DNA of 64,000 nucleotides from Schmidtea polychroa (GCA_044892525.1 CM097886.1:93000001-93064000); one strand, 5' to 3'. Positions 5,229-51,824 are shown, counted from the stretch's first letter. Program-made: numbers and translations. The notes: generated by a model not told the origin, from the sequence alone.

Positions 5229-5598
5229 TGTTGCCTTACTGAGACGAATCTTTTTATTGGGTGGTATGGAAGGTGTGGACATGCTGGGCCTGTCGATAAG
5301 CTCCGTCAGAGGCCGGATTTGGGTGATCGCGTCCTTGTCGATTTCTTTTTGGTTCACTTGTGCCTCCAACTCCCTGATTATCAGGCAAAGGGCTCGTAAT
5401 TCCAGTAGATCCTGAACGCTCTGAAGCTGTAATTGTTGGATCAGCTTCAGGCGCTTTTGCATTTCGACAGGGGAGAACCACGTACTCTCCAACTCGTGAC
5501 ATCGCCCCTTGAATTTCGATAATTTGGACACACACGCCTCTACCTACCGCTGTGCCCGTTCACGATCCTGGCGCATATTTTCCAAGTTTCACACTGAA
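5229..5598 (-). pseudogene. Truncated copy of the repeated coiled-coil ORF-B (ESTWFSP subfamily)
   Basis: KFKGRCHELESTWFSPVEMQKR aligns by eye to KLKGKCREFEGTWFSPEAMKRK at 50.6 kb. It has the same TTTCAG|TGT acceptor and an internal stop. Confidence 0.75.
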
Positions 5599-5994: not shown

Positions 5995-6430
5995 TCACAG
6001 TGAGGTTGGTTTGCCGGGAGGATCTTCCGTTGGCGTCAACTTTCTTCTGGGAGCATTCGTTGTTGTCCCCGGTGTCGATGGTGGCAGTCTTTTCGGGGTA
6101 ACATTGAGACTTGGGTCTTCTAATTCGCCGGCTAAGGTTTCGTATCTAATCTGTGTAAGCGATCCATGGCTGCCTTGACATCATCAAAAGCCCCCATCAA
6201 CGCCTGCTTTGTGTGGTTAATATACGGTTCCACCTTTGGTTTCACCGGGGCCACGTTCTGGTAGGTTCAGTCATGGATGCAGTACCATATCCATCGCGTT
6301 CGCAGACGAGTGAGCGCTCTGGCTTCGTCGAAACTGGCCTGACCTTCGACCTTCACTTGGGCCGTTTTTGAGATGGACTTGATCGATGAAGTACTGGCCT
6401 GAGGGTTTCCTTGTTCTGTGCTGTTCATGT
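5995..6430 (-). pseudogene. Decayed copy of ORF-A (homologue of the AT-hook ORF at 49826-50191)
   Basis: RALTRLRTRWIWYCIHD matches QTITRLRTRYIWYHIHR. It lies upstream of ORF-B as in the 49.8-51.0 kb copy and has stops downstream. Confidence 0.7.
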
Positions 6431-6831
6431 CAATAGTAACAAGAAAACAATGGTAATGTATTCTTTGCCAGCTAATAAGATTTTTGTTCACCAATTCGGT
6501 GTTTATTTTACTAGACTTTTAACTTAAAATCAACAAAAAAATAATTTTTAGCTTCTAACTCAAAATTAGAATTAAATATGTTGGGGTTCAACAAGAGAGG
6601 CACAAAAATGAGGTGAAAACTGACAAAAACACCAAATTCAAAATAAAAATTTAAAGTACAAAATATTATTTAAAAATAAAAAATTTTTAAAAAATGAATA
6701 TTTTCTGAGGGAAACTGGTATGGGCGGATGCTAAATAATGAGACGAGTTCAGCTATAATAAAATAAAATCAATGGGGGGTCCCTAAAAGGAATAAATTAC
6801 AAAAAACAAAAATTAATTAAAAATTAATTAA

Positions 6832-7000
6832 CTAATGGAAAACCCGAGCTAATGGAAAACCCGAGCTAATGGAGAACCCGAGCTAATGGGAAACCCGATA
6901 CAATGGAAAACCCGAGCGAATTGATAAATCCAATTTTGGGAAGGCAATTAATCTAGCCGGAGAAACCCAATTTTGGAAAGGCAATTAATTTAGCCGGATA
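6832..7000. repeat. Tandem repeats: ~18-bp unit (CTAATGGAAAACCCGAG-like) about 5 times, then a ~36-bp unit twice
   Basis: Read directly from the sequence. Confidence 0.85.
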
Positions 7001-7989
7001 AAAAGTAATAAGCGCCGTCAAAGAAAATGAGCCAATTCCCTTCAATTGAATTAAACCTCCAAGAGGAAACCCGGGGGGAAATTGGACTAAAGATAATTGG
7101 CAAAAATAAAGTCAATTATTAAACGAGTATAAAAGCAACTGGCAAGAAAACAAAATGCCAGTTGGTCGAAGAAAAGAAAATAGAAGTTTGAAGAGAGCGA
7201 AAAGGGAAATATTAAAGTTAGTAGAAATTAAACCATTTAAAAATCGAACGTACCAGAAAGGGACATCTCCCGTTGGAAGATCTACCCCTGCGTGAGATTT
7301 GTTGGCAAATTGAAAAGTGCAGACAAAACCTGATTGTATCAAGTGTGAGTAAACTAATACAAGTGTAAAAGTGTAACTGCATCAGTGTCAATAAAGATTT
7401 TGTGTTGGGTTATTTATTTATTTGGAAAAGAACACAAAGGAGTCAGACCGCAGTACCGACTTACATTAAAAACCCAACAAATAGAAGAAATAATTTTTAT
7501 CTTTTACCTTAAAATTTAAAATCAATTTATTTATTATTAATTCAAAACTAATGTTAATAATTTGTCCTACTTTAAAAGATATTGTTGTACTAAATATTTG
7601 CCTTCAAAATTAAAATTGATTGCACCACCGGACTCAGCTATTATGGGAAGAAGGATAACGACACCGGTACCTCACTCGATGTTCCTTACTATTCTCTGGA
7701 TCATAGCTGTTACGGGTGGTTTAGTCGACCTCGTTGGTATCAGGTAATTACATTTTTTGTTCTTATTACACCATTCAATTTAGTCTGGAAATGGCGTAAT
7801 GTTTCGCGACTTCAGTCTCAATTATCTTACAATGTTAATCACTACCAAGTGTCGCTCATTGGTTCATATGGTTCTTCGGCAGGCGGCGCTTCTATTGACG
7901 GATGTGCTACCAATGTGTGATCGATTCCTTTCTCCTATTGGAATTTTAACGGCTTTTTGATATTATATTCTCGGTTTCTTGCTGTATTG

Positions 7990-10900
7990 TGTTGGGCTAG
8001 AAGGAAAGGTAATAATTTAAAAAGCATAAGAGGAAAACAACAAGAAATAAAATAAAAACCAAAAACAAATCGAAAATAAATTAAAAATACAGACAAATAA
8101 ACAATAAGAATAAATAATAACAAATTAGCCAAGAAGAATTAAAACAAAAAAATAAAAAATGAAAAATTAAGATAAGGAAACCGGAAAAAATAGTAAAATA
8201 ATAGAAATTAAATAATAAATAAGAAAATAAAGAAAAAATAAAGAAAACAGTAAGGAAACACTAAGAAAACCATGAAAAACAAAGAAACAGAATTAAAATA
8301 AAATTTTACATCGCGCTCAATTTTGATTGGCTCGCATAAACACAAAAATAAGTATTTAAGGGAAACACTGAATCAGAATTTTCAGTGTTAACCCAGAGCA
8401 TTGTTAAGGTAAAATTTTATTTTTGCATACAGCAGTGTTAACCCAGAGCATTGTTAAGATTTTCAAGGACAAACTCACGGACTATTCAAAAACTCTAGCC
8501 GATAATCAAGGACAAATTGTAGAAACTTCTAGCCACCTATCACTCGAGGATCCATTTTATTTTTCGACAGAGAGGATAATCAAGATTTCAAGTAAAATTT
8601 TTATTTATTGGAGGAATTTTAATAATTTAAAATGTTGAAAGTAACTGCAATTTGTTAGAAAATTAAATGTTTCAAAGTGACAGTGTTTTCCTTACTTACC
8701 CATTATTTGTAGTAAATTATTTTCAACTAGTAAAAATTTTTATGATTTTAAATGCAATCATGCTCAATAACCCTTATGATTTAGATATGAATTTTTATTT
8801 TTTTGTTTGCATATTATGTCGAAGGTTTGATGAGTAAATGAAATCATAATTTTATTACATTTTCCGTGAAGCTGAGGTTCAGCTGGTCACAGCTCGAGGG
8901 ACACTAGTTGTTCCTCTTGCCAGAAGGCCAGATGTTACATCAGCGGCGCAGTGGTTAAAAAAAGGGTCATCGTGGGGGGTTTCCTCAGTGATCGGTCACC
9001 ACAGGAGCGAATAGAGACTCGTGTCAATCAGTTGGCAAGTGGAAATTTGGTAAACATTTCTTGTGAATGGTTCTCGCAATGGCTGGGATGTCTGACTCGT
9101 TGTTCGTCGACGTTATTTCTAATCAAAACACTCTCCCGATCGGTTATTAGCCGTCGTCGAAACTAGGATCCTTCGTCAGATCATTACATCAGAAATCTTA
9201 ATGCCAGACTTCTGATCTTTCAAGCATTCAAGTGACCCAATATCACCGAATAGGAAAATTGGCAAACTGCGCTGCCATATGTCTTTGATTCAGTATCGTT
9301 GTTCTAATAACTGCACTATAGTGAACTTGAGCATTCAGATAGGTTGTCTCGATAAATTCGATTTTCAGAAACACCCGAGTAGGGGAGGTGACAGAATTTT
9401 CTCGCCCCAGTAAGAATAAACACTCCTAGCCAGGATAAACGAGTCTCTAACAGGATAAGATCATGATAGCAATTATTTACTACTCGTATCCGATCAGATT
9501 TCCTACTGTTGATATAAACATCATGAGAGTTTTTGATATCATTACGACCCGATAATAGGTTTTTGAAACAGGGTGGGAATTCACTTTTAAAATTCGGTAC
9601 ATCAGATTAATACCTACAGGCAAGGTTGCATACAGAATAAATTTTCGGCCACTGAGAACCAATAGCTGTATTTTAGCACAATCCACCAGCAGAGATGAAC
9701 CAATCCCCGAACCTGCCTCAGACAGATATTCACATAAGCACCAAAGACCGATTATAACTCGGATAACGACATCTGTCGGATAATATGGCCTGCGTAGTTC
9801 AATACTTCTGTCAGGATAACAAATATGACTACACATAATTACACGGGTGATATAATAATTCGAGTAGCCACACTAAATTTATGGTTAACTAATGTGATTG
9901 ATGAACTTTCAGCTAATTCCCACAATGAAATTTTCGCGATCAAGTGAAATCTCACTATACACACGAGATAAAATCGTACAATCATATTTAATAAAATTGC
10001 TAATTTAACCTAAATCGTCTCCCAGTAAGCAATGGGGACCCACTTAAGAAATCTAGATACTCCAATATCGTGCCAGTAAAGTTCTTTTCAGGGGCTACCA
10101 ATTTTATAAACTCAATTGATCAGTTATTTGTTCGGGATGCGTGAAACAAAATTAAATAAATAAAATAAATGGAAATTCTCTTCATTTGCTAAACGAACCC
10201 GAGCCCCGATTTTTCTCTAACGTGATGCTTGGGGAATTGACTGATTGTTGTTTAAGTTTATGATTTGTGGTATTAGTTAGGGTAATGATTATGACAAGTT
10301 ATGAGTGTTGCCCTGGTTGTTGTTAATGTTACACCTCTAATCTTAATTTTTACAATCACGATTTTTCTTAGTTGTTGTCTTTAATATGGTGATCATCATT
10401 ATTTCTTTTTCCTTGTAACGGATTGAATGGAGAATGGAGGATGTATTGAAATTCGAGAAAACTTGACGACGACATTTAATTAATTTACCTGTTCAGAATG
10501 TCTAAAACTCCCATATCAACCACTGTTCTACGCCCGTGCTTCTCTTACGCGGACAAGAACCTTCTCATAAAGACGCTCCAGACTCAAAATGGCCTCCTCA
10601 AGAAGAAAGTCGACCATTTGGAAGGAACCTACTTCTCCCCCGCATAGATGAAAGAGGTGAGAACAAGGCTCACCAGGGCAGAAAGATGTTGTAATGAATT
10701 GATCGAGGAGAGCCGTGCTTTACGAGCTCTGATCAAGGAAAAATCTGTGGCGCAGCACCAGGTTTACGTACAGGCGTCGGTTACGAAGAGAATAGTAGAT
10801 ATTCCAATTTCTGAAGAGGATAATCTATTTCCGTCCCATCACCTTCAACTAAAAGCCATCGTGACGTCTACCGATCAGGCCAGTGTCACTAGTTCAGTTG

Positions 10901-11746
10901 CCCCAAGACTAACAACCTCTTCTGACCCCGTTTACATGGGCACTAGTCGAGCTGCACCTATAGTGGTAGACCTAGTAAACCCGGTCACTCTTCCGGAGGC
11001 AAAGAAAGTCACCAAACGCCGGCAACCTTCTAGGGCCGAGCGCACGAAGAGGAGAAGGGCCCCCCAGGCCGAAAGAGAAGCGGCTCTGATCGCCGTCGTT
11101 CAACTATCAGCTCGCGGAATCTACACCTCAGTCTCTTCCTATATTCAGGGTAGTCCCGCCCACCAGTACAGCCTGGGAAGAAGATGATCGAGATTTTTTC
11201 GACCTTGATGAGTTATTTGCAGGAACTTCTCCAACCACCTTATGATTTGAAATCTATAATATCTAAAATGTTGATCATGCATGTATTTTTTTTGTCGTGT
11301 CTTATGAATATATCTTGTTGTTGTCGTTTGTAAATATGTTTTCCTGCTGTGGGGTAATTAATGAACTGATTGTGAGGGTTTGTCTGAGCATTGCATAGGG
11401 GTAGACTGGCGAATTGGATGTCGTAGTAGAGATTGGTCAATGACAGGAATGATGTATGAGATCTTTGAGTGATGAAAATGACGTAAGTCCTTCTAACGGC
11501 CGTCGAGTAACAGTTAAGTCGAGTTTCGATGAGGGAGTATTCCTAAGGCAGGGCTCACCTGCCTCATCGTGGCCCGCCGACATGGCACATCACCAACATG
11601 ATGCGAATCATGGGTCTCATGCTCGAAGTGTGATCGTGTGGGTTTTGGTTAAGGGTCCGTTGAAACGATGAAATACTGTGTGTGTATTTAGGACTATCAT
11701 CCCCTGGTATGTGAGAATATTTTCTGACCCGACCCAAGACCCAGCA
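7990..11746 (+). mobile_element. 3757-bp TG...CA element, probably a giant solo LTR, carrying ORF-B
   Basis: Starts TGTTGGGCTAG and ends GACCCAGCA, flanked by 4-bp direct repeat ATTG (7986-7989, 11747-11750). Homologous along its length to 39306-43389. Confidence 0.85.
10498..11245 (+). pseudogene. ORF-B copy with a premature TAG (10645) and a late frameshift
   Basis: TTCAG|A ATG start; PCFSYADK, DHLEGTYFSP, KRRQPSRAERTKRRR and FFDLDELF motifs shared with the intact copy at 39910-40668. Confidence 0.85.
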
Positions 11747-13323: not shown

Positions 13324-13520
13324 GGTTAGACGGAAAGCTTAGTGGCTGTAGGATAGATCTATTGCTACGTTCTGTAACTTTATGATGTTATAATATCAAC
13401 AATAATCTAGTATAAGGGTAAATTAATTGGAGAACTTAGGAGGTACAAGTGAGGGTAAATCTCGCAAGTTGGTAATTTTATAACCTGAGGTTTATATTCA
13501 ATTTCACGCATAATCATGGG

Positions 13521-34104: not shown

Positions 34105-34714
34105 TTAAAATAATAAATGAATTATCAAAATTTTACTGGTAACATCCGCCTGTTTTTCTCGACAAGGTTGAGTCCGTTCCACCCGAGTGCGGAATTTCCG
34201 TTTCGGTTTTTCAGGTGCGATTGTTGGAGCGGGGGCCACAACAGGCGTCATGGTAGCAGTTGGGGCCATGCTAGTGCCGATATAGATCACCTCAGAGGCG
34301 TTGACGTGACTGAACTCTCCCATGTACTCGAAACTTAGATTGTTTTGGTGCGCTGGGTCCTTTTGTCAAATGGTGACTGGGGAAAATGTTCACTCGGTCT
34401 TTAGCAGGACATTCCGCGATGCGTTTTCTGAGCTCGGAATTCTTATAGATTTGATGAAGAACTCTCGATTGCTCTCGAATGAGGATACGCTGCGACCAAT
34501 TTTCTTTCATCGGGCTATCCCTGCAGTGCTCTAGACGGAGCACTTTCTCATTGGTTTCTTTCATCTGGACGGGGGTGAATCAGGTCCCCTCCATATGATC
34601 AATACGCTTCTTCAAATGTCCGATTTCTGTTTGCATTGTGCACATTGACGCATTTTTATCTGCGCAACAGAAGCAAGGTAGCAGAGTTGATTTCGGGGCA
34701 TTTGGTCCTGTCAT
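34105..34714 (-). pseudogene. Decayed ORF-B copy
   Basis: TTTAG|AA ATG start; PCFCCADK, DHMEGT*FTP and NIFPSHHL motifs; contains a stop and a frameshift. Confidence 0.8.
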
Positions 34715-35352: not shown

Positions 35353-36769
35353 CCTGCAAGTGAACATTATTGTTTAATAAAATTAAAACAAACTGCCATT
35401 ATTAGTTAAACATCTCCCATCAGGTGCGTGAATTCTCTATTTGATTATTTAATTTTAATTTCATGACAAGCAATCCCTAATCTTTGGACCCACTTAGTGA
35501 AAGTTGTGGAAACTATCATGTTTGAACTAACGGAAGTTGATGATGTATTCATTGTAGAATTAGATGAAATATATTCGCAAAAATCAATGTTTACTAAGAC
35601 GTTGTCAGATCGACCCGTACACTTGGTATGGTCGTCGGCTATTTCCGTTGTATATATCATTGATAATTATCTCAAAGTATACCATGAACCGGTTAATGTT
35701 CCGTGATGTAAGTATCGTTTAAGTCGGATGTTTATATTAGTGGTACTCTTGACATTTTGCTATGCAATATTCGAAATGGAATAATGGTCGACCATACGTT
35801 ATGTTGGGCTAAGAATAAGAAAAAATATTTTTCTCATTTTTAAAATCATAGTTTCCTTTTCTTTTAGCTAGGAACTAATAATCTAATTCTTCATAGAAAA
35901 GGTTTCCCGCATTGAGAAAACCGACTAAAATACCTAAATAGTAAATAAAAAGCAATAAGTCTATTTAAATAAAAAAACAACACCAAATAAAACAAAATAA
36001 ATATATCCAAAAAAACTAAATAAAAACAAAAATAAATAAAATCCAAGAAATGCAAGAAGTTGCACACGATACATAAAAACAGCAAAACGAATATAGAAGA
36101 ATAAAACATGCACAATATCCAACCAGGATGGAGAGAATTAATTAAATTATAAAATAATTAAATAATCAAAGGAAAATATAAAAAGAATAAAAAACCAGTA
36201 AAGCGGAATTTAAAAGCAAAAAATAAAAAATTACCAATTGTCACCCATACTCAATCCTGACTGGATAATAAACAAACGCGAACGGTATATATAGGTCCCT
36301 TTTAGTCAGTTTATTCAATGCTATTAGTTACTAATTCTTAGACTCTGGATTAGCGGACAAATTTTTAAATTATTCTACCGAACCGAACCGAAACTCAACT
36401 CATTACCGTTCTAACGTATTCAATTCAAGAACCAATTTTACATCTATAGTGTGAGCCGAATCTTTGGAAATCAGTAGTAAATTTTATTTGTAATTTCTAT
36501 GATGTATTTCTATTTTGTACTGTATGCTATAGTAATGTATAAAGTGATTGTAACAATATTTATTTAAAAATCAAAATAGTTTGGTCGGTGCATGGAGAGA
36601 TGGCGATGAAGTAAAATATATTAAATAAGGAATCTATAAGGTTTTAAATGTTATGTGCATAAAACTGCACAGAGGGTCTGAAGGGGTTAAAAAGATCGCT
36701 CTGCTTTTCCTCTCAAATGATAATTTCGAATCTGTAATTTTCATAATGAAATTCACAGTAGGAGTAATG

Positions 36770-37467
36770 TTTTGCAGACAAGAATGCAGCCAATAAATCT
36801 CTTCAGGCCGAAATCGGACATCTCAAAAAACGAATAGATTACATGGAGGGGACTTGGTCTGCCCTTAGCCAGATGAAAGAATCGACAAAGAAAGTCCTCC
36901 AGTTAGAATACTACAAGGACAGCATGCTGGAGGAGAACAGAGCACTGCGCGTACTCATTCGCGAGCAGGCTCAAGCCCTGCACCGAATATATTTCGGAAT
37001 TGGCAAAGCGCATTGTAGAACTGCCAATTTTAGAAAATAGTAACATTTTCCCAGCCTTGCATCAATCCGAGATTTCAAGCTCCCGCAAACGGACGATCTG
37101 TACGAATCACAACGAGCGTCCATCTTTCCACTCTACCCCAGATATCGTCTACAAGGGGACAGGTCTAGCCCCCGCCAAAATCACCCCTCTATAGGCAGCC
37201 TCAACATATGTAGTAGCAACGGCAAAACTGAAACGCCAGTCATTCACTCGAGCAGAGCGCACAAAACGACGCAAGAAAAGACAAGCAGAAGCCTTACTGA
37301 TCTCGTCTAATGCAAAAATGGCGGCGGAACTCATGGTCACCATGGATACCTCCAAAAAAAATTCTTACACCGTCGTCCCAGCCTCAGATACTCCTTGGAA
37401 TGAAGTAGACCACTCTGAGTTTGAATTGACCGAGCTACTCAAGGAAGCCGAAGGCAATAATTCCTGA
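36770..37467 (+). pseudogene. Decayed ORF-B copy, downstream of another TGTTGGGCT start at 35802
   Basis: DYMEGTWS, LEENRALRVLIREQ, SRAERTKRRKK and PWNEVDHSEFELTEL motifs. Confidence 0.8.
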
Positions 37468-39305
37468 ACTCAACCGGCCATGAACACGTCGTCGCAGCAT
37501 AAATAGAACATGTGACATTTGGACTTATGACCATCTGTTTTAGTATGACATGAATCGTGAATACGGTTTCTGTTATAGTCGGTTAGTCGATAGGCATGTC
37601 GTATCGGATGTTGTGTAGCTTTCATTTTGTCTGTTATATATAACTTTATGCTTTGATTTTATTTCATTATTAGAAGCTGCTAAAACATCTTCTAAATTGT
37701 TTTTTAAATCCGGTTCAAAAGTTAAAGACATAATTCCAAATATTTATTTTAATGAAATATTGTATAATTTCCAAACAATTTTTCCGCATTGAATAAAATA
37801 TTTTCAAAACCATTTATCAAAATATTTCAATATTTAAAACATAAAAAGTTTTCATTAATAAAACTTCTTTTTTAAAAAGCTTTTTTAATTTTTAATTAAA
37901 AATTTCTACTTAAAAAATCCAATTTAAAAATTATTTAAAAGTTATTTTAATAGTCAATTATTTACAATTTAAAATTATTTTGATAAACGATTGAAATATT
38001 TAACTCTCAGCTGAAAACACTTCACATCCCCCTTCTTTAAGAAATTTCTTCATCTTTTCAACATTTCTTTGAAGCATTTTCCCACTTTGGTCTTGTTGCA
38101 GATATCGGCGATCATGAATCTTCTGGATTATTCTGTATGGCACATCGTATCTTTCCTTGTCTTTCGTTCTTGATTCTACTTTTACCAGAACCTCATCTCC
38201 AATATTGAATGATCTCTTTGTCTGCGTTGTTTCTCTTGTATCTTCTTTTTGTGAAATCGTCGCTTTACTATGAAATTGTTCTCGAGCTATTTTTCTTCCA
38301 AATATTACTTCGTCCATTTGATTTCTGAAATGTTGCATTCATGGTAAATTCAATCTCTGGTATGATCTCTGCCCAATCTATTCTACTTTTTTCTTTTAAT
38401 GATGTATTTATATAGTCTCTTATTGTCCTGAATTGACGTTCTATTACACCATTTGTATTATGGTGATATGGACTTGAAAAGCATAGTGATTTTGTAATTG
38501 ATTTTGTAAACTCTTTCATCGTCTTAGATTCAAACACTTTTCCACAACCTGTGTGAATTTCCTTTGGTGCTCCAAATCTAAGAATCCATTTTTGTAGTAT
38601 TGTTTCCTTCCCCATTTCTTCATCCTATTTAGCGACAGCAGTAAGAGAGATATATTTGCTAACTTGATCAATCATTGCGACTATATATCTTTTTTTTCTG
38701 AATGTTTCCTGTAATGGGCCACATATATCAATGTACATTTTTACGGCTCCTCTGGTGTCAGCTTTATTGTCTCTTTCTTCATCTTTGTTGTCACAACTTT
38801 CGTTTTTTGACATGCCTCTCATTGCCCAATTGTTTCTTTTACTGATTCTTTTATGTCTTCCAAATCGTAATTGTCCGCTAAATATTTTGTCACCTTTTCT
38901 TCTCCTGTGTGTGATAGCAAAATATGCATACTCTTTATCATTTCTTGTCTTTTTCTCTAGGTATCCATATCTTACTCTCTATAGTTTTTATCACGTTGTC
39001 TACCAGTATAAATTTCCAACTTGAACCCTGTGCTATTTCTTTTTTTATATGTTCTATTTCTGTATTATCTTTTTGCCACTTATTATCTTCAGCTTTTTCC
39101 ATCGTGTTTATTCTTCGGATTTTCATTCTTTCCACTTTCGCGTCTTCGTGTGCCAATAAACATTGTGTGCATGTTCCACATGTACTCCTTGACAACATAT
39201 CTGCATTTGCATAATCAGTACCTTTTGTATACTCTATTTTAATATCCAGACTACTGAGGTAGTTAATCCATGTCTAAAATTGCGTTGTTATTGGTTTCTT
39301 TGTGG

Positions 39306-42300
39306 TGCTGGGTCTTGGGTCGGATCGAAATCGTACTCCACTCACACTAGGGGTGATAGTCCTAACTACACAATCAACTCATCATCATTCTACAGGACCC
39401 TTAACCAAAACCCACACGATCATACTCCGAACATGACACCCATGATTCACATCATGTTGGTACTGTGTCATGTCGGCGAGCTACGATGGAGCAGGTGAGC
39501 CCCTGCCTTAGGACTACTCCCCCATCGCAACTCGACTTCACCATCACTCGACTGCCGATAGAAGGACTTACGTCACCCTCATCATTCTAAGATCTCCTAC
39601 ATCATTTTTATTTGTCACCAAACTCTACTACAACATTCAACGCACAAATACTATCGTATTTAGCGTTCACCAACGAGCTTTACCACATTACTCTCATCTG
39701 TAACCTTACTACGTTCAGCCTTATCACATCCCTTCCACGTCTTAGTTCCATCACTCGTTATCGAATCCCCTAATCAATACTTCATCATACTCAAGCATTC
39801 AACATCGTTAAATCTGACGAGTCACAATAAAGAAAAATGTATTGACGAATTATTAAATTACAAGTGCATTGCTAGGTACCACAATTTTTGGAGAGTAAAG
39901 CAGATACCATCACAGGGTGCTTGGAGAAGCTCCAGCGAAGATCTCATCGAGATCGAAAAAATCTTTAGCATTTTCCTCCCAGGAGGAGTCGACGGGCGGA
40001 ACTACCCTGAAGATAGGGGGAGAATGCCGGGTGGATTCTACCGGAGGTACTGGAGCTGGCGGTTGCACAGAGGCGATCAGAGCCGCTTCTCTCTCGACCT
40101 GGAGGGCCCTTCTTCTTTTAGTACGCTCAGCCCTGGATGGCTGGCGACGCTTCTTGCTCTTCTTCACCTCCGGAAGAGTGACCGGGGTTGTTAAGTCCAC
40201 CGTCCTGGGTTCAGCTCGACTTATTCCGGTGTAGACGACTTCAACTGAAGCTGTCGGCTGAGAAATGCTCGTGTGGCTTAAGTTGGCCTGGCTTACTGGT
40301 TTCAGCAACGAGATACCTGAGAGGTGGTGAGACGGGAATAAATTGTCTTCCTCCGCGAGTGGGATATTGACTATTTTTCTTGTGACTGACGCTTGGACGA
40401 ACACTCTGTGTAGCGCCTCGGACTGCTCTTTAATGAGGGCACGCAAAGCGCGATTTTCTTCTAGTACGTCGTCGCGACATTTTTCCACTCGGGTGAGCCT
40501 CGTCCTCGCCTCTTTCATTTGAGTGGGGGAAAAATACGTTCCTTCTAGGTGATCTGACTTCTTCTTGAGGAGGCCAATTTGCGCTTGCAACGTCTGAATC
40601 ATCTGATTTTTATCAGAACACGAAAAACATGGGCGCAAAATCGTGGCACTGGTTGAAGCTTTCGACATTCTAGAAATGCAAATATTTTCGTTAACCCTAC
40701 TATTCCTCATTGTACCCAAACATCATTCCTCACGCCTCGTTCCATCAGTTCCCCATCATGCCAAGTATCCATCAATCGGTGTTGACGCTGTTAACCAACA
40801 AAGACGACACTCACGACCATCACATCAATCCCAATAACCACAGCAAAACCATAACAAGACTCATGATCATACTCATAACGAGAATTCCCAACTATAACAA
40901 TAATGACACCGACCATAGTAGCAACAACAACGAGAACAATTAATAACAACCACAACAACAATAGTAATGATCATAATAATAGTAATAATAATAATAATAA
41001 TCATGTTAATAACAAACCGACAGTCATATTACTAATTCTGATAATGATTATGTTAAGAATAATTACTAGACGCAGTAAAAATCACCGTTCATACACATTA
41101 TCTGCCTACGTCCGTTGCGCTAGGGAGAGGAAAACAGAGTTTATTTAATTTGCAGGGAAATAATACCTCCCCCTTCAAGAAAACACTTTAATTACTTTGA
41201 ATTTGTTGTAAAGGTCGTAATCTCAATATCAAGTAAGTGAGAATTTCAGATTTAGCTATTCCGATTGTTATCAGTGCAGGTGTTAACGTTAGTTGGATAT
41301 TAATTTTTGCACTCTCCATCTACTGAGTGTGATGTTCATGAATATTAGTGACAAATAGTTTAGCGGCAAGTAATGCATTACGCGTATGGTGGGAATGAGT
41401 CTTATGTGTATCTATCAGTTGAGATTAAATAATTCCCGGTGGTGTTCCTGTGTGTGTGATTATCAATGATGTGATTTTCGCGCATGGGGCATTTACTGTT
41501 GGAGTTCATCTAGACCATTGAGTCTCTCGTGCAAATAATCATCTGCGTTGATATAAAAAAATTTTTTTATCTCGGTGATCTACCCGTTGTGAATGAGTAG
41601 CCAAAGCGGCCTGCAATTTTTGTGATAGTGCTATCGCTAATACCGTACTGGAGTAAATGCGAAGTTTTATGGAAAAGTTTGACTCTGATCCGGAAAATTC
41701 GGTTTACGACGAGATGAGTTTGAGTGTGATTTAATTGTTCGAGTGGATCCCGTGAGGTGGATATACTTAATGCTATGTGGGTGTGACATGCGAATATCAA
41801 GATTTTTAGAACTCAGTTCTCGTTTAATTTTCAAATAATTATTGTTAGATGGAGATTCATGATTTAATTTGTGGAAACGGGATTTTGCTGCGAATTACCT
41901 ATTTCGCGATTTATACCGATTTCGGATCAATGGAGACGACAGTTTTACTGGTCAAGATTGGAACTAGACGTACTGAATTTCACGCAACGTACCAGAGTTA
42001 TAATTCGCGAAATTTTGAAAATAATTACTACATCTCAACTTAAGTCTAAGATTTTAGTAGCAAATTTCACATATCACTGATGTATTCAAGGTGATCTGAT
42101 AGACTCAGATTTACGAATTTTTTCATGAATATGGTGTTTTCATTTCCATTACTACTCGGGTGTTCTGTGAGAGCGTCGATTCTACGGTGGTAACCATCGA
42201 ATTTATGATGAAGAAACATAGTTGACACGACGTGTACATTTATCTGAATTGCGATACTGACAGTGAAGATCAAGATGTAGTATATTCTGATGATATTGAA

Positions 42301-43389
42301 TGAACGAAGATTGGATCGCCCTAGCCATTGCGAAGAGTCTTATTCAAATTTTCCGAAAATTTCCACTTCTTTACTTGCATCAATCTCCTTTACAAAATTT
42401 TAGTTCCACTCTTCCCGTAGCGACGGATCAGTGAAGAAGCCCCACGATGACCCGCTCAACTACCACGACGCTGATGTTGCACTTGACCTTCTGGCGAAAG
42501 GAACAACTCGTGTCCCTCAAGCGGTGGCTAGGTGAACCTCAGTGTCGTTTGATATCAACAATAAATAGCATATTAACATAATTTATAATAATAAAATTTC
42601 ATACTATTCCAAAATCTAAATAAGAAAGAATTATAAGAATTTCATTCAAAATTTATTGGTGAACAGGGGAAACTTCATTAACAAAATTTTGTTTAATTAA
42701 AACCATTATCATCATTACTATACGCTTATAATTACTATAATAATTACTATAACGGTTTATGATAAATAACAAAATTTACTTCGTATAACTTTAGAAAGGT
42801 TCTCCGAGTGATTTAGCTAGATTTAAATAGTCCTCCTGATGATTTGTCTAAATTTGAATAGTTCTCTGAGTGAGTTGTCTATCTGATCCTTGAATTAGTC
42901 CGGTATAGTAGTTGCGAAGTGCCTTAACAATTTGTTTTATTAACACTCCACATGTAGGTTTAATGCGCTTACCTTAACAATTTGTTTTATTAACACTGAA
43001 AATTCTGTTTCAGTGTTTTCCTTATATACTAATTTTGTGTTGATGCGAGCCAATCAGAATTGAATGCGCCGTAATGTTTTTATTTAATTCGTTTTCTTTG
43101 TTTTTCTTAGTTTTCTTGGTGTTTCCTTACTGTTTTATTTTATCTTTTGATTTATTTTCTTATTTATTATTTAATTTCTATTATTTTGCTATTTTTTCCG
43201 GTTTCCACATCTTAATTTTCATCTTTTATTTTGTGTTTTAATTCTCTTTGTTTAATTTTTATTATTTATTTCTATTGTTTATTTGTCTATGTTTTTAATT
43301 TATTTTCACTTTGTTCCCTAATTTTATTTTTATTTCTTATTGTTTTCCTCTTATATTTTTAAATTATTATTTTACTTTCTAGCCCAACA
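39306..43389 (-). mobile_element. 4084-bp TG...CA element (giant solo-LTR-like) with an intact ORF-B
   Basis: Minus-strand termini TGTTGGGCTAG...GACCCAGCA and 4-bp TSD GTGG (39302-39305, 43390-43393), inserted in the Gypsy RNase H region. Confidence 0.9.
39910..40668 (-). CDS. Intact ORF-B, 252 aa: CxxC, coiled coil, basic cluster and acidic-aromatic C-terminus; function unknown
   Basis: Open frame with ATG one base after a TTCTAG acceptor, as in the other copies. Confidence 0.75.
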   Translation of the reverse strand: MSKASTSATILRPCFSCSDKNQMIQTLQAQIGLLKKKSDHLEGTYFSPTQMKEARTRLTRVEKCRDDVLEENRALRALIKEQSEALHRVFVQASVTRKIVNIPLAEEDNLFPSHHLSGISLLKPVSQANLSHTSISQPTASVEVVYTGISRAEPRTVDLTTPVTLPEVKKSKKRRQPSRAERTKRRRALQVEREAALIASVQPPAPVPPVESTRHSPPIFRVVPPVDSSWEENAKDFFDLDEIFAGASPSTL

Positions 43390-45429
43390 GTGGATAACAT
43401 AAACGTGATAGCTTTATGGTCCGTTCTCAAAATGAACCGTTTTCCATATAAATAATGATTGAAGTGTTGACAAAAATAATAGATTGCCAACAGCTCTTTC
43501 CTTGTTATGCAATATCCCTTTTCATAATTCTCATTGCATGAGAACCGTATGATATAACCTTTTCGCACCCGTTGTCGTTTTTCTGCTCCAATCGTGTCAA
43601 AACTCGCACCAGTGTCCAGAATGAATTCTCTTTCGAAATCTGGAAACCCTAGAATAGGTAAGGACACTAAAGTATTTTTCATATTTTCGAATGCGATGTT
43701 GCATCCGTCAGTCCAAATTAATTTTTTGTTGTTTAACCCGCATAGCTCTTCTAAAACTCTTGTCTTTTTTGCGTATTCTTTTATAAATCTTCTGTAGTAA
43801 TTGCATATTCCTAGGAAGCTTTTCAGATTCTTAACACATTTTGGCTTTTCAAATGATTTAATCGCGTCTAGCTTTGATAGGTCTGTCTGTATTCCATCTT
43901 TGTTGATTATGTGACCTAAATATTTGACTTCTTCTTTAAGGATATGGCACTTTTTAGGGTTTATCCTAAGACCCGCCTTTCCCATTTTTTCCAGCACTTC
44001 ATTTAAAACTTCGTAGTGGTCATTGATCGTTTCTATAAATATCAAAATATCGTCTAGGTATACTGCTGCATATCTCGTACCCATTAATACTTTTCCCATC
44101 AGTTCCTGAAATGCACCTGGTGCCGCTGGTATTCTAAATGGCATTTTGTTAAAACAGTATTGCCCTGATTTGGTTGAAAACGCCATTTTTAGATTTGATT
44201 CATCTTCTAGTTCTACTTGATAATATGCATTTCCAAGATCTATCTAACTGAAATACTTTGCTCCACCCAATTTATCTAACATCTCTGCTATATTCGACAT
44301 AAGGAATGCCTGTCTCTCTGTTACTAGGTTTAATTGCCTGAAATCAAGACATAATCTGATATCTTGCTTTTCTTTCTTCCAGACACATATTAATGAAGTG
44401 TTCCATGGCGAATTACACTTTTTGATAGTATTGTTTTCCCATAAGTTTTTTATCGCTTCATCTATTTTACCTTCCAAGTTGACTGGTTGTCTCCAAGGTT
44501 TCATATTTATCGATTTTCCTTGAGTTTCTATTTTATGCTTCAACAACTTTGTGCAGCCAATGTCCCATTTATCAGCCATAAAAACATTTTGATTCTTTTT
44601 TATAAGGTTTAGTAGTATCGGGTTATTTATCTTTAAAGTATTCTTTGCTTTTTGAAATCGTTCCATCTCCATTATTGTCTTTCCAAATTTGGCTTCGATA
44701 CTGCATATGTGCTCTTGCTTCGTTTTCTCGATCTCTTCTACTGGCCATTTTAGTTGTATACCAAATTTGTTTTGCAACTCTATACCACCAATTACCTCTG
44801 GAGTCATATATCGTACTATCGTGAATTTTACCCTTCTTTTCCTGCAATTTATTAATATTTCTAATATTGCTTTACCTTTTGTTTCTAAAACACTATTATT
44901 TGCACATCTCAATGTAACAGTCGTTGTTGTTAGTTCTACATCTTTAAGTTTCGCAAATTTGCTCCAACTCATGACATTTACTGTAGCTCCTGTATCGAGC
45001 AAGCATTCTATCTTCTGGTCTTGTATTCTAATAGTTACACTTGGTCGGCCTTGCGCTTTATCATAACTGATAATATCCTTTTTCCATTCATCTAAGGTGA
45101 GTATTTGTATATTTTCTCGTTCTCTTTCTCTTTCTGCAACATCCTTTTTATGAATCTGTTCACTTTCCTTATTACATTATTTTTCTCTTCCGTTGCCTCT
45201 GTATCTTTCACATATTTTTCTATAATACGTGATATTTTACTTTTATTATAATCATTAATAATTTGGGAGTCAGCAGTCTCTGTATTTATCTTCTATTCTT
45301 TCATCACTTGGTTCGTTTATGAATGCTTGTTTCGAGGACCCCACCAGGGCAAATGCACTGGACCCTTTAAAATCCTTCGGCACAAAGAGAATAAAACCAC
45401 TCTCTCGAATAAAATCATGAAATCATTAA

Positions 45430-45510: not shown

Positions 45511-47989
45511 TGTATATAATTTTAAATTGTTTCCATAATACTTATTTATTATTATAAATTATTATAAATTTGGTCTGTATATGACAACGAAATAAACGCC
45601 ATACCAAGAACTCAAATCAAATTAGAGCGTTGCCACAGAAGATGGCAAATATTGGTTGGAAAAAATCATCCTGGAATATTCTACATATTATTTTACGGTG
45701 AATAGCGTATAATTTAAGTTTATAGATTTTTATTGTGGAAATATTTTTCTGCATCTTTTTCTTTAAATTGTTTATTTATCATATAAAATTACTTTGTCGT
45801 CCTTTAAGCCTGTCAGCTATCTGTCCTCGTTGGCTTTTTGCCTATGTCAGCCTTTCGTCTATCGGCCTTTTGTCGTAGACCCTATATAACTAAGAGCCAC
45901 CAGAAATAGTTGAGATCTCACTCCAATTTATGGAGACCTCAACAGTTAGCAGTGTTTTACCAGGAACTAAGGAAATAAACATAGGTACAAACCAACAATT
46001 TCTGTTAACCAAGACACGCTTTGAAAGATATCAATAATTGTTAGTTTTACATTTCACTGAGAACACCAACAAATTCTAACTATTTATAAAAATAAATCTT
46101 AACTAAATATCGCTTAATTAAATAATTGCTTAATTAATTAATAAAATGTAATAAATTAAATAGAAGTGTTGGGCTAGAACTGATTCCTAGACCCAAACTT
46201 CTAATTGTGGCTGCAATGTGTAAGTACACAACATGCAAAAAGCAAAAAGTATAGTCAAATATTAAAAATACACCAAATAAACAATATTAATTAAAGGAGA
46301 AAACAACAAAAACATAAACACAGAAATTAAATAAAATTATACAAAAGCAAGAAGTGATGCAAAAATCGAACTCAAAAATAACCAAATAAACACAGAGTTA
46401 CAAAAAACAGACTCGAATAACTTAAAAGATGGTATAAACATTAAAAATTTCCAGAAAAACCCAGAACATTCCATAAAAATGGCGATGACCATCACAAAAG
46501 CCATCTAGAACAACAAAAGTTAGAGAAAATAAATAAATTAGTATTAAAAATAAAAAATCTTAAAAAGAAATTCATAAAACATCAGTTAAAATAAAAATTA
46601 AATTAAAAGTAATATAGAATGTTCTGGAACCGTTCCAAATCCATCATGGACGTAAAATTAATGAAAAATAATTAAAAAATAAAAATTTAAAAATAAAAAC
46701 AAAAATTATGGCACAAAAATTGCCATTAAAAATATCAAAATCGCTAAATAGAAAATTCTGGAATAAAAAGAATTCGAGTTTGTTTTAATGCATCAATACA
46801 TACACGTGTACAAAATAGGTATATATACTGACACGTTTCAGCCACAAATAATCATTATTTTATGCCAAAATTTTTTTGTCAACAAAATATCAACAGTGAG
46901 TACTATTGCTTCATTTTATTTATTATTATTTTATTTTATTATTATGTATCTATTGTTGACCCATCTATGTTAAACGATTAAAATGGTTTATATTTTGATT
47001 TTGTTTAATTAATTTTTTTTTGTGATGTACGAATGTTCAACGGCGTACCGGTATTCCTGCGTCGTTGTTCAGTCCTGCATCCAATTTAGTAAAAATCTCA
47101 TAGGACATGTAAACCTGCATTATTTATATTATATTAATCCATATTATACGGCTCTTTTTGTTCCGGTCAGCCGGAGGTCGAACTACTTCATGGTCCTGCC
47201 ATGGAGTTAGGTCGAGGAAACCCTCCGCCTGACTCTTTGTATTTATCTAAGGTCAACCGTAAATGGTTGACTCAGCACACAACACTAAGGTTTGTGGAAA
47301 TGGTCACAGTGGGGCCATGGAAGCAATACTCTTCCCGACCTTTTACGTAACACATATTTAAATTCAACATTTAAAATCAGTACAACAAAAAATACACTAA
47401 GGTCCTAAATTGAGTAGAACTCATACCTAAACTTACACAACTATACAAATCACACTAATGTAGCTGGTTGATCGATAATAATATTTTTGGTACACTTGGA
47501 CATATGCCGAATTAGGTTTGGTAATAGAATCTCATGGTAATTGGAATAATAGAAATGGTAAAATTATTCGGCCTATGTCTAAGTAGAGCTTAAATCTGGA
47601 TAGACCTGTGAATTAATCATCGACTTAATGGATCCAACGTAAGGGAAAAGGTTATAAATCTAAAAGAATTTCGAATCTAAGTTCTCACTGTAAAATATTC
47701 ATAAAGGTATAAATAATTAGTTATAACTTTTATAAATAATTATAATAGCTTAGAGATAATTCTATTGACCTTAAAAAGTAAAACGTTGACGGATAAATCC
47801 CGATTAGGAGTTATAGAGTCGGCGTATAAAATTTTGTTTTATGACTAAGTATATGTGAATGTGGAACTTCGGGAAATGTAACTTATAGACAGTTACCAAT
47901 AAACCTGAAAAATGTTATAAGACGATGTAGATCACATAAAAGTAATCTCATAAAAGGTCATATAAAGCTGACTAAAGGATCGTAAATCG

Positions 47990-48660
47990 TAAAGTACCAA
48001 AACTATAAATTATAAACCTAAAATCGTAAATTACTGAACATAAAACTATAAACTATAAATTAAAAACCTAAATTTCTAAATTGTAGACTATAAAAGTGTA
48101 AAGCATAATTATAAAGTCTAAAATATCGAATATAATATTATAAGTTATAAAACTATATAACTATGGGTTAAAAATCTAAATTCCTAAATTGTAGATTATA
48201 AAAGGACAAATCATAACTACAAAGTCTGAAATGTAAGATCGTAAAATGTTGAATATAAAATTATCACCTAAAAACTATATAACCATAAAGTAAAAATCTA
48301 AATTTCTAAATGGTAGACTATAACTGTATAAATCATAACCATCAAGTCTAAAATATAACATCGTAAAATATTGAATATAAAATTTAAACCATATAACCAT
48401 AAATTAAGAATCCAAATTCCTAAATGGTAGACTATGAAACTATAAATCTGAAAATATAAAATTAGGAAGTAGAAAATATAAAATTGTAAAATGTTAAATA
48501 AAAAATTTATAAATTATAAAGTGTATAACGAGAACTTATAAAGTATGAATTTATAAACTGTAAGATATAAAATTGGAAATTGTAGAACGAAAACCTGTAA
48601 AGTGCAAAATGTAACATTCTAACTCATAAAATATGAATCTCTAAATTCTGAAAGACAAAA
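47990..48660. repeat. Degenerate ~110-120-bp tandem repeat array running into an N gap
   Basis: Recurring AATTYCTAAATKGTAGAYTAT anchor at ~48071, 48179, 48301 and 48415. Confidence 0.75.
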
Positions 48661-49825
48661 TACGAATNNNNNNNNNNNNNNNNNNNNNNNNNNNNNNNNN
48701 NNNNNNNNNNNNNNNNNNNNNNNNNNNNNNNNNNNNNNNNNNNNNNNNNNNNNNNNNNNNNNNNNNNNNNNNNNNNNNNNNNNNNNNNNNNNNNNNNNNN
48801 NNNNNNNNNNNNNNNNNNNNNNNNNNNNNNNNNNNNNNNNNNNNNNNNNNNNNNNNNNNNNNNNTTGTTATCCTTGTTACCACCATTTTTACTGTTATGA
48901 TCATAATTAGTATTACTTACTAGGAAAGCAAAAATCAATTATTGATTTTTTTTTCTGATTTCCCATATCTAGATTTGGAGTCAATTCTTTTGCCCAATAA
49001 AAACGTTCCTAACCTAAAAAATCTATATTTAGCAACACCCCCCCCCAGAGAAACATTAAGGAAAAATTCAAGACTGGGATACGACCATCAAGAGTTTCCA
49101 GGAGACGGTGAGAATGACTCCGGCGAACCATGCAATTGAATAAATAAGCCATAATTCGCAGAGATTTACTTACGTACAGAATACAAATATTTCCGGAAAA
49201 TTTCCCAATTCTGCGAGTGATAAATTGCGGGTCCAAATCAAATATTGGGCATGAAATGACATTCCCTGGGAAGAATTATGGGAAGACTACTCCAAGCTAA
49301 CCTATTCCCTCTTACTCGATCAAGGTTCATAATAATATCACCTAAAAAAAAGGAATTAGAAAAATTAAATAAATTACTTGCATGTAGAGCAAACCACTCA
49401 TAACGAGCACAACTGAAGGAAAGGTAAGCAGACGAAGAGCTTAGTTCGTTGCTAGTACCTGTCGCTCCAGCGTGCCCCAATTTAGTGGCCTAGAAATGAC
49501 GATCTAAAAACCTCACATTTTATTAAAATATAAATTAAAATTCATAAATAGTAATTAAAATTACCACTTAGTGGTAAACAAAACTTTTGAATGTAAATGA
49601 TTAATTTAAACAAACGAATTTTGACGAAATTCCTTTTTTTGTTATCTAGTTGATAAAGTATGAGATCTTATTCTACTGTTCCTAGGATTATAAATGCTAG
49701 TTTTAAAATAAATGATTTTTTCTTTAACTTTGAATTTTTAAAAAAAGGAAAATGGATCAACAAAATCCCGTGTTTAACCTCGTAATACAATTTATATAAA
49801 GCGGCCTGATTGTTACTTTGTAGAA

Positions 49826-50191
49826 ATGTCCTACTCTGACAGCAGCAGCATCGAAGAAGACGATCGGCAGACGATCACCCGACTCCGTACCCGGTACATT
49901 TGGTACCACATCCATCGGTGGAGTCAGGGACGGGACCTGAATTGCGCAGATCGAGTGATCCGGCAAGGCCCCGAAGCAGATGCCCCGGCGTGGGTGAAGA
50001 CGGAGCCGGAGAACAACCGGTTGCAGGAAGCCCGCGATCAAGCGGCCTGGGACGTAGAAGCCGCTCAGATCCGGCTTAAGAAGATAGACTTGCAAATCAA
50101 GTCAGAAAGGGAGGGGGTGCCCCTAGAAGAGTTACAGGAAGCCGAGGTACCCCCGAGAAAGAGAGGGAGGCCCCGCAAGTATCAATTGTGA
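49826..50191 (+). CDS. ORF-A, 121 aa, acidic N-terminus and C-terminal AT-hook (PRKRGRPRK)
   Basis: Intact ORF with ATG two bases after a TTTGTAG acceptor; homologue at ~6.0-6.4 kb. Confidence 0.7.
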   Translation: MSYSDSSSIEEDDRQTITRLRTRYIWYHIHRWSQGRDLNCADRVIRQGPEADAPAWVKTEPENNRLQEARDQAAWDVEAAQIRLKKIDLQIKSEREGVPLEELQEAEVPPRKRGRPRKYQL

Positions 50192-50481
50192 TTAAGAGCC
50201 GACATTTGACTTACTTCAATAACTTCTTATTTATTGGGTGTGGCTTAATTAATGATCAATCTTGACTAATGTTTGTTGTTAAATAATAATTTCTTATTCA
50301 TTGGGTGTGTCTTAATTAATAACTACAATTGACTGGGGTTTATTATCAAATGAAGTGGTTTCTTTTTAAATTGAGTTGTAAGTAACAAGTATAACAATGT
50401 CCTAGCGACACATTATTAGTATTGATTAATCAGAAAACTCTTTTACCATGTGTAAAACTAATAACACCCTTTATGTTTTCA

Positions 50482-51003
50482 GTGTATAAGTTAATGGAAA
50501 ACCTGCGGAAGGATCGGGAGCAGGCCCAACAACAAGCAGACGAACTCCAGACCCGAGTAGATAAACTAAAAGGGAAATGTCGGGAGTTCGAGGGGACCTG
50601 GTTTAGTCCCGAAGCGATGAAAAGGAAAACCACCCAGATTCTCCAGCTGCAGACACAGGCCGCCCAGGATCAAATGGAGATTCGCGCCCTAAGATTGCAG
50701 GTGCGTGCGCTCGAAACCGAGCGGAACGAGCGGTTTGTGCAGGAATCCGCAGCAAGACAAATACGGCCGTTGACCGTTGAGCTCGCAACAATCTACCCGC
50801 CCGCCGCGGAAGGTAAACCCAAACGAAAGCGGCTCGGGCGGAACATTCGAGAAAAATTAAAGAAGGCCAGGCTGGCCGAGTACGAAAAGCAAGTGGACTC
50901 ATCGCAAACGTCTACGACGGGACTAATTGGCCCACCAACAAGCCGAGTTGAACTGTTATTCCGTTTTTGTAGTGTGTTTTGTATATTTGTAGTATTAAAA
51001 TAA
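50482..51003 (+). CDS. ORF-B (EGTWFSP subfamily) exon; 3' end probably not native
   Basis: TTTCAG|TGT acceptor conserved with the 5.6-kb copy; coiled coil followed by a basic KPKRKRLGR cluster. Confidence 0.6.
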   Translation: MYKLMENLRKDREQAQQQADELQTRVDKLKGKCREFEGTWFSPEAMKRKTTQILQLQTQAAQDQMEIRALRLQVRALETERNERFVQESAARQIRPLTVELATIYPPAAEGKPKRKRLGRNIREKLKKARLAEYEKQVDSSQTSTTGLIGPPTSRVELLFRFCSVFCIFVVLK

Positions 51004-51430
51004 TATTTTTTTTTGCTGATAAAATAATATATGTTTGGTAGCAGTAAAATGATGTCTGATATATTTATGATTGCCTGAGAAACGAGAGCTTGTGCGTAAG
51101 GTTGGGAAAACAATTTTGATAAGGGACCTAAGGAAATCGGACACAAACCTTCTAACGGTAGTCCGTGAACCCATGGAGTACTCGACGATTATAGTGCCTC
51201 GATGCGCTCACTTTTCGCGGGTACTCAACCCCTTGGTACAGTACCAACGTTGATTACTCAACGGGTACCAAGCGGAAACTAATGTTGTATTTTGGGTTAC
51301 GCTGGTAACAGCACTAAAGAGCAAAATATGTGATCATCAGTAACCCACCACTTGTTTTCACTTGAATCATTACTAATGAAGCATTTTTTTGGAAAAGCGC
51401 TTTTGCATTTGGTTAAAAACACTATAGAAA

Positions 51431-51699
51431 ATGGTTAAAGAAACTAAATATTATGATATTCTTGGAGTTCATCCTAATGTCTCAGAACAAGAATTAAAAA
51501 TTGCTTACCGTAAGCTTGCCCAAATACCACCCAGACAAAAACCCAGATACTGGTAATAAGTTCAAAGAAATATCACAAGTTTTGGATGATGCTAAGAATC
51601 GCCAGATTTACGACGAATGTGTAGGAACAAGCATTGAAAGAAGGTGGATGTGATTTTGGATTTCATAATCCAATGGAAATATTTGATGTGTTTTTTTGA
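51431..51699 (+). pseudogene. DNAJA: 5' fragment of a DnaJ class A (J-domain) gene, frameshifted
   Basis: [13 protein letters not shown]...AYRKLA...HPDKNP...FKEISQ; small deletions and stops; no intron seen. Confidence 0.85.
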
Positions 51700-51824
51700 T
51701 GTATGGACCTAGCAATTAGCTATACGTCATTAAACTCAACATCACCAAATCAATCTAATCAATTGAACATTGTGTGAATATTTACACTGTTATCTGATTA
51801 CTTAGTGTACAGAACTTTGTTTTA

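Follow-up and report, generated by a model that had tools for sequence, protein, structure and literature searches.

Among described retroelements, those closest to the elements considered here are the giant Gypsy-type Burro retrotransposons (Burro/GYPSM1; PMC6431247) and the Platyhelminthes GAG-ENV-POL errantiviruses (PMC13524379). In the available portions of these sources, and in the elements reported here, the size is 25-38 kb, with long terminal repeats (LTRs), accessory open reading frames (ORFs), a CCHC-type Gag, a fusion glycoprotein encoded between Gag and the protease, and the order protease, reverse transcriptase (RT), RNase H and integrase; MATH/TRAF, RING, ankyrin and BIR cargo is shared with Burro. 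A 64,000-nucleotide stretch of the Schmidtea polychroa genome (GCA_044892525.1 CM097886.1:93000001-93064000), referred to as the window, contains six copies of a gene, ORF-B, that belongs to elements of this kind. We consider it almost certain that ORF-B is located in the LTR and is under selection. The portion of PMC6431247 available to us refers to accessory ORFs without describing any gene within the LTR, and in the part of the PMC13524379 supplement available, the LTR and primer fields are empty in two Smed errantivirus rows, so LTRs are not delimited for those two entries. No description of a gene in the Burro LTR was found in the literature, though Grohme et al. 2018, Repbase entries and figures may already show the ORF. 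Burro elements are already published, and a selected LTR gene with no found relative in an invertebrate Gypsy-type element is not described in the texts examined.

LTR-borne accessory genes are found in vertebrate retroviruses (sag of mouse mammary tumour virus, MMTV). Like these, ORF-B lies in the LTR, is duplicated in each provirus and is likely expressed via splicing. However, there is no sequence relation, ORF-B is downstream of the predicted promoter (possibly in R/U5, not U3), and the host is an invertebrate. A preliminary description of the window drew an analogy with accessory proteins of complex retroviruses, and this is supported, because ORF-B is in the LTR of an env-bearing retroelement. 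Foamy virus Tas, human T-cell leukaemia virus Tax, Kaposi's sarcoma-associated herpesvirus K-bZIP and geminivirus AC2/TrAP are small nuclear regulators that activate or de-silence the viral genome. ORF-B resembles them in having a dimer helix or Cys motif, a basic segment, and an acidic tail or SUMO-interacting motif, but there is no sequence or fold match and the domain order is not that of bZIP proteins.

ORF-B copies, LTRs and parent elements

ORF-B is borne by an LTR, and the LTRs found in the window are variously solo, nested or truncated (Table 1). This conclusion is based on target duplications, an invariant junction with the internal domain, two-LTR elements and same-strand pairs. An exact 4-bp target duplication was present in 20 of the 22 units read at both ends; one further unit had one mismatch and one failed. 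LTRs bearing ORF-B range from 3.4 to 5.4 kb. The focal solo LTR is 96 % alike over 4,103 bp to another insertion, and its empty site (joint 39301-43390) is present in all four sequencing runs examined. Upstream sequence shared by two of 67 5' ends of the focal subfamily was used as a search query and found at 20 loci, all 20 ending ...GGGTCCCCGAGTGATT directly before TGTTGGGCT. Five of these junctions run into a focal-subfamily LTR and the remainder into sister-subfamily LTRs. Among the 150 matches listed for a sister subfamily, 41 pairs of neighbours on the same strand are separated by 20-40 kb (32 of them by 25.5-26.5 kb), and there are no opposite-strand pairs.

All six window copies of the preliminary description are real, as they were recovered by tblastn, using the 39910-40668 protein and the 50.5-kb protein as queries, and by profile search (best E per copy 2e-13 or lower). 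However, the family is not limited to six. The 781-Mb genome holds hundreds to thousands of copies, the best 150-152 matches having been scored of 6,472-7,132 candidates per protein search. The copies at 10.5, 34.4, 37.1 and 40.3 kb are of a long type (ORF-B), and those at 5.4 and 50.7 kb of a short type (B'), an exon of 152 aa in most relatives (169 aa at 50.7 kb) that shares the kinked coiled coil and basic helix and is without PCFxCxDK, the DLT motif and the acidic tail. B' is paired in every case with an AT-hook ORF (ORF-A) upstream, and a relic of ORF-A (~6144-6329) is upstream of the 5.4-kb copy. Of the six window copies, two have open frames (the 40.3-kb copy and the 50.7-kb exon) and the other four are broken. 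LTR ends were sought around the 34.4-kb and 5.4-kb copies and not found; a solo LTR of another family (6579-7479, 901 bp, aata target duplication) is nested near the latter.

The EGT-type coiled-coil motif said to be common to the copies is indeed in all six (LEGTY twice, MEGT*, MEGTW, FEGTW and LESTW). PCFxCxDK and SRAERTKRRR, attributed to the longer copies, are each exact in two of the six, with a degenerate PCFxCxDK or a similar basic cluster in two further copies. The acidic tail was found in three copies; the two B' copies are a distinct tail-less type, to which the argument for an acidic activator is inapplicable. The AG|A(A)ATG start context, described as persistent, holds for three of the six, and is looser genome-wide, where 39 of 40 open copies have an AG located 0-10 nt upstream of the ATG. 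The LTR setting, the solo and nested relic nature of the copies and the separate tail-less type had been overlooked.

Most changes in the 11 nt before the B' ATG (50483-50493) are synonymous when read in the B' frame, and in some copies the Met is replaced by Leu or Phe. B' is therefore probably a second coding exon; an upstream partner coding exon was sought and not found. A natural chimeric frame of 284 aa (G000:C3 56.82 Mb, L198:1501) has a B' start and the acidic-tail end of B, and apparently arose by recombination between LTR families.

Table 1. Features of the window, segments of the ORF-B protein and mapped two-LTR elements
Feature	Position	Strand	Details
Solo LTR carrying focal ORF-B	39306..43389	-	4,084 bp; TGTTGGGCT...GACCCAGCA; TG...CA; ccac/ccac target duplication
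ORF-B focal copy (40.3 kb)	39910..40668	-	252 aa, open reading frame
Predicted LTR promoter	42971..43054	-	ATTGG (CCAAT) box, TATA, initiator-like TCAGT 31 nt on, 25-nt first exon, GT donor
Second copy of 25-nt first exon	42923..42947	-	exact
Predicted splice acceptor	40669..40690	-	pyrimidine tract and AG, one base before ATG
Conserved structured RNA	39430..39574	-	near LTR 3' end, downstream of ORF-B, 125-270 nt before LTR end
Unrelated small Gypsy pol	38000..45176	-	target, not parent, of focal LTR; insertion in RNase H region
Second solo LTR, focal subfamily	7990..11746	+	3,757 bp; attg/attg target duplication; holds 10.5-kb copy
ORF-B copy (10.5 kb)	10498..11245	+	65 % identity, E 5e-85; one in-frame stop, one frameshift
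ORF-B copy (34.4 kb)	~34120..34714	-	44 %, E 2e-32; stop, frameshift, 3'-truncated, no tail
Truncated LTR with decayed ORF-B	35802..37600	+	begins TGTTGGGCT
ORF-B copy (37.1 kb), decayed	~36750..37467	+	51 %/30 %, E 8e-30; stop, frameshifts
LTR of second family	46167..51350	+	~5.2 kb; ends GTAACCCACCA; flanks gaag/cttg not matching; carries ORF-A and ORF-B'
ORF-A	49826..50191	+	121 aa; acidic N-end; C-terminal AT-hook-like RKRGRPRK; Pfam AT_hook E 0.006, just under cut-off
ORF-B' copy (50.7 kb)	50494..~50950	+	27-33 %, E 3e-6 (tblastn)
ORF-B' exon	50483..51003	+	acceptor 50482, ATG 50494; coiled coil and basic helix; no PCF/acidic tail
ORF-B' copy (5.4 kb), decayed	5304..5585	-	45 % to 50.5-kb copy, E 5e-19; stop, ends early
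ORF-B protein (252 aa), N-terminal part and motif	residues 14-17; 18-43/48-96; 157-160		CxxC; coiled coil kinked at EGTYFSP; VDLT
ORF-B protein, C-terminal half	residues 169-199; 230-244		Arg/Lys helix; acidic-aromatic tail
Two-LTR element, long-type ORF-B	G000:C2 121.02-121.06 Mb		LTRs 99.5 % over 884 bp; TGGGGGCTC primer site
Two-LTR element	G000:C2 111.56-111.59 Mb		ORF-B in both LTRs; ataa duplication; TGGGGGCTC primer site
Two-LTR element for B'	G000:C1 169.05-169.09 Mb		TGGGGGCTC primer site

Three parent elements were mapped LTR to LTR, two with long-type ORF-B and one with B' and ORF-A, and their LTR pairs are 95-99.9 % alike. They measure 24.9 kb, ~38 kb and ~38 kb; the LTR-to-LTR period is mostly 26 kb, and paired LTRs are 23-38 kb apart. 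In both families, a primer site, TGGGGGCTCAGCCGGGA, lies 6-8 nt after the 5' LTR end; it is presumably that of tRNA-Pro. The internal Pfam order is zf-CCHC, Retrotrans_gag, Monjiviricetes_fusion (E 1e-24 to 1e-44), RVP, RVT_1, RT_RNaseH and rve. Cargo domains are MATH and RING in both families, ankyrin in one and BIR in the other, and the ORFs for Gag, the fusion protein, protease, RT, RNase H, integrase, ankyrin, RING and MATH are upstream of the 3' junction. The parents thus have the Burro features of size, Gag-env-pol order, MATH, RING, ankyrin and BIR. The BCL2-like, ubiquitin/SUMO-like and dUTPase-like domains, reported for Burro using HHpred in the accessible text of PMC6431247, gave no Pfam match at E 0.001 among 23 internal ORFs. 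A further Burro feature is a single polyprotein of ~4,900 aa; the parent copies read here are broken by stops and frameshifts. No ORF-B was found in the internal regions scanned by profile. A relative (G000:C2 121062491-121082276, L164-L166) shares the primer site and junction; its LTRs are 1,557 bp long, and it has a tcat duplication.

Between the TRAF-like gene and the 3' LTR, three loci (L109, L157 and L181) contain acceptor-led ORFs without a Pfam match, namely coiled-coil proteins and a protein with a signal/membrane segment. Two other arrangements were rejected. ORF-B is not ORF3 of the neighbouring small Gypsy, as the latter is the insertion target, and a reversed element with a self-priming site is ruled out, as the tRNA-type site and all internal ORFs share the direction of ORF-B.

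Selection on ORF-B and predicted protein and RNA features

The ratio of non-synonymous to synonymous substitution (dN/dS) was 0.12 for the long type (20 open copies; 64 of 190 pairs with dS <1.2, 82 saturated) and 0.10 for B' (18 copies, 153 pairs), and one-ratio codon models gave 0.169 and 0.184. Two of 22 B and three of 21 B' frames with altered ends were dropped from these sets. Because the sets had been chosen by protein likeness, loci were also picked by the non-coding 3' end, broken or not, and dN/dS was 0.127 in 23 of 29 (six were left out as duplicates or <60 codons). Shifted frames gave 1.2-2.4. The antisense frame (0.23 and 0.14) is not the true gene, as it is closed in all 40 copies. 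The past purifying selection proposed in the preliminary description is therefore borne out, with dN/dS of 0.10-0.18 rather than near 1. Among the copies picked by DNA, the closest pairs gave 1.03 and 0.53, the 21 more distant of the 23 gave 0.09-0.24, and 19 of 25 indels were frame-shifting. Higher ratios, approaching 1, in the closest pairs and frameshifts are as expected if selection acts in the replicating lineage and inserted copies decay. By region, dN/dS was 0.05 for the coiled coil (residues 1-115), 0.11 for the basic helix, 0.10 for the tail, and 0.32 and 0.59 for the linkers; for ORF-A it was 0.26 (21 copies). In a quick tree, used only descriptively, B' is apart from B on long branches.

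AlphaFold modelled helices at residues 18-43 and 48-96 with good confidence, a weaker helix at 179-199 and disorder elsewhere (mean predicted local distance difference test, pLDDT, 60.8; predicted template modelling score, pTM, 0.32). Two chains of residues 10-115 were modelled as a parallel coiled coil, with a score of 0.51 versus 0.00 for the best of three controls. The mark used for dimers was reached by 21 of 30 solved pairs and none of 23 single chains, and, for eukaryotes, by 17 of 29 pairs (animals, 7 of 16) and none of 30 single chains. The dimer runs share at least 76 % of contacts with pLDDT of at least 78, and place Cys14 and Cys17 in the interface. ORF-B is thus predicted to be a parallel homodimeric coiled coil (residues 14-93) with two CxxC motifs side by side, in agreement with the earlier suggestion of a dimer. 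The Arg/Lys helix includes 13 K/R. In one group, 14 of 15 copies have a motif [VI][DN]L[TA] ahead of the basic helix, and in the other, 24 of 25 have it behind that helix (shuffles, 2.5 %), so the motif was retained although its position shifted. The accessible part of PMC4161520 assigns VIDLT to the type B SUMO-interacting class. The tail, WEENA(K/S)(D/E)FF(D/N)L(D/E)E(I/L), is nearly fixed between groups that are ~40 % identical.

From an uncounted number of LTR 5' ends, 15 distinct ones were selected for having both a TATA-like word and a donor; all 15 also have a CCAAT box and a 31-nt TATA-to-initiator spacing. The predicted first exon is 24-25 nt, and its GT donor is ~2.3 kb upstream of the ORF-B acceptor. 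ORF-B thus follows the predicted start site and may belong to R or U5, or to U3 if there is a second promoter. A repeat of the first exon (42923-42997, 8384-8460) lies 24-30 nt past the donor, and is exact within a copy in 11 of 15 and ~78 % alike between copies, which suggests that it is rewritten during reverse transcription. Contigs covering ORF-B relatives come from runs that are only guessed to be RNA, and show neither expression nor splicing. In one low-depth contig, ~49413 is joined to 49855, close to a GT donor and to the acceptor of ORF-A, and other contigs are unspliced across acceptors.

In the hairpin near the LTR 3' end, 97.7 % of cells are paired (slid controls, 33-42 %) and 15 of 43 pairs show two-sided change, counts that overstate independent events because the 28 sequences fall into few related groups. 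Rfam gave no match in 39200-43500. The segment GACGTAAG...TTCTATCGGCAGTC (39547-39575, 11480-11510) is nearly invariant, without covariation, and persists in the short-LTR relative as well. It might be bound by a protein, and includes TGACGTAA, which we take to be CRE-like (cAMP response element).

Proposed function of ORF-B and alternatives

We propose, with confidence that is evenly balanced, that ORF-B is a spliced, LTR-encoded nuclear homodimer that raises transcription of its own element, by activation or by relief of SUMO-linked silencing. Transcription would start from a promoter ~390 nt into the LTR, and splicing would join the short first exon to the acceptor that immediately precedes the ATG. 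With its Arg/Lys helix, the protein would reach the nucleus and attach to nucleic acid; its (V/I)DLT motif would bind SUMO on silenced chromatin, and its acidic-aromatic tail would recruit co-activators, the net result being positive feedback on the LTR promoter, via activation or silencing relief. The constrained acidic tail, the basic helix, the moved SUMO-type motif and the AT-hook-like sister gene, ORF-A, all favour this role. Silencing pressure exists in planarians, because Burro transcripts rise on loss of the nuclear PIWI SMEDWI-2, according to the available text of PMC8532177. Since the predicted promoter and splice sites lie in the LTR together with the gene, each solo LTR would form a self-sufficient unit of expression. 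A narrower version, which we regard as doubtful, is that this LTR gene, in R/U5 unlike retroviral U3 genes, encodes a SUMO-binding dimeric anti-silencer acting against nuclear PIWI, and that solo LTRs supply it in trans. A selected LTR gene would make these elements resemble complex retroviruses in gene regulation as well as in envelope. ORF-B would be a small candidate, amenable to knock-down, for the means by which the most abundant planarian retroelements maintain their expression despite silencing by PIWI. Solo LTRs would be protein-coding cassettes, and in annotations and transcriptomes could pass for orphan genes of the host.

Several observations weigh against the proposed self-activator. 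No homologue or fold match supplies a function. Homologues outside this genome were found in none of 747 candidates, none of 1.84 billion representatives and none of 7,997 with an alignment. PDB sequences included no match, the best ESM Atlas result (0.84) was unnamed and of low recognition, and Foldseek against viral structures gave none at E 0.001 (with a query model of pTM 0.32). However, this homology blank is weak, because the libraries searched are poor in flatworm transposon proteins. The promoter and splicing are predictions from motifs. Coiled-coil dimers may score by likeness to solved structures, and only one of seven eukaryotic pairs without an older relative reached the mark. In bZIP proteins, the basic region directly precedes the zipper; the basic helix of ORF-B follows the coiled coil at a distance of ~80 residues, so its presence does not imply binding to DNA. 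Acidic-aromatic tails can activate transcription, but for ORF-B this is an argument from likeness to acidic activation domains. B', without tail, CxxC or DLT motif, is equally constrained, so the shared core function needs none of the three.

Points concerning the element also count against this proposal. No two-LTR element of the focal subfamily was seen, only the junction of its 3' LTR with the internal domain, and this junction, though invariant (20/20), is not purine-rich. Among the 68 listed 3' ends of the subfamily, there was no shared downstream sequence beyond duplicated loci, and no primer site. In the 1,557-bp-LTR relative, ORF-B was not detected by profile and most of the interior has no long forward ORF, so ORF-B may not be universal even among elements with the same primer site.

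The main rival, which we consider unlikely, is an exporter of the Rev/Rex/Rem kind, in which the Arg-rich helix would bind structured RNA of the LTR, the coiled coil would drive multimerisation, and the outcome would be export or stabilisation of unspliced genomic RNA. As far as the available text of PMC2661877 describes these systems, ORF-B and its element would share with them a helix rich in arginine, helices that multimerise, an RNA structure at the edge of the LTR and a multiply spliced genome, and the MMTV response element is likewise at the LTR edge and in all mRNAs. The RAERTKRRR helix is selected (dN/dS 0.11), the basic helix is kept in B and B', and a covarying RNA structure is 3' of ORF-B; with many acceptor-led ORFs, the element would need regulated splicing. 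However, no conserved leucine-rich export signal was found (one canonical pattern, 40 copies; best position bin 15/40), a search that does not exclude atypical signals, and response-element binding is putative here. ORF-B is twice the size of Rev. The hairpin adjoins the primer site, a place at which one would expect signals for packaging or dimerisation, its 28 sequences are in few related groups, and the SUMO-type motif and AT-hook partner point to chromatin.

An improbable alternative is a host-directed effector or decoy that binds host SUMO, ubiquitin, or antiviral or small-RNA proteins, or packs with Gag, and has no action on the LTR promoter. The parents' RING/TRAF, MATH, BIR and ankyrin cargo fits such a role, as these domains make interference with host ubiquitin and apoptosis systems a theme of the element (PMC6431247, in the portion available), and the moved DLT motif fits a linear-motif effector. 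Against it, the ORF-B sequence has no evident signal peptide or membrane segment, the tail is constrained as a unit, and the place of the gene directly under the LTR promoter fits a regulator that acts early on its own element.

The possibility that the ORF-bearing unit is a small mobile element of its own, a DNA transposon or non-autonomous element rather than an LTR, would fit the solo state of most copies read, with target duplications (20/22), and the lack of a primer site at the 68 listed 3' ends. However, the terminal inverted match is only ~7 bp, and the paired LTRs with primer site, the invariant junction and the 41 same-strand pairs largely refute it, leaving it very improbable. Least probable of all is a non-functional or structural relic, either a chance ORF or a piece of Gag or LINE ORF1, which the four broken window copies, frame-shifting indels and closest-pair ratios might suggest. 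The selection tests refute it: copies that decay neutrally once inserted would be expected to break, the more distant copies are constrained, the element's Gag is elsewhere, the internal regions scanned are without ORF-B, and Pfam searches of 39 members gave sub-threshold coiled-coil matches alone, with no Gag or LINE ORF1 domain, a clear match to which was named in the preliminary description as a refuting result. Neither a capsid/zinc-knuckle nor an RRM-CTD is present in ORF-B, the model consisting of helices and disorder only.

Other elements in the window

A Polinton-like element (13520-29327) has terminal inverted repeats 94 % alike over 633 bp. It includes a polymerase B-like ORF (24256-27849), an A32-type ATPase, an rve integrase, a capsid-like ORF (21491-22720) and a TBP-like ORF (17869-18327; Pfam TBP E 2e-16). 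Inside it is a GIY-YIG (Penelope-like) fragment (20589-21497) with a 132-bp palindrome (21024-21155). Fragments of a Nop14-like host gene are at 57907-60274 (Pfam E 4e-7), and a decayed stretch at ~51420-51700 resembles, by eye, the start of DnaJ.

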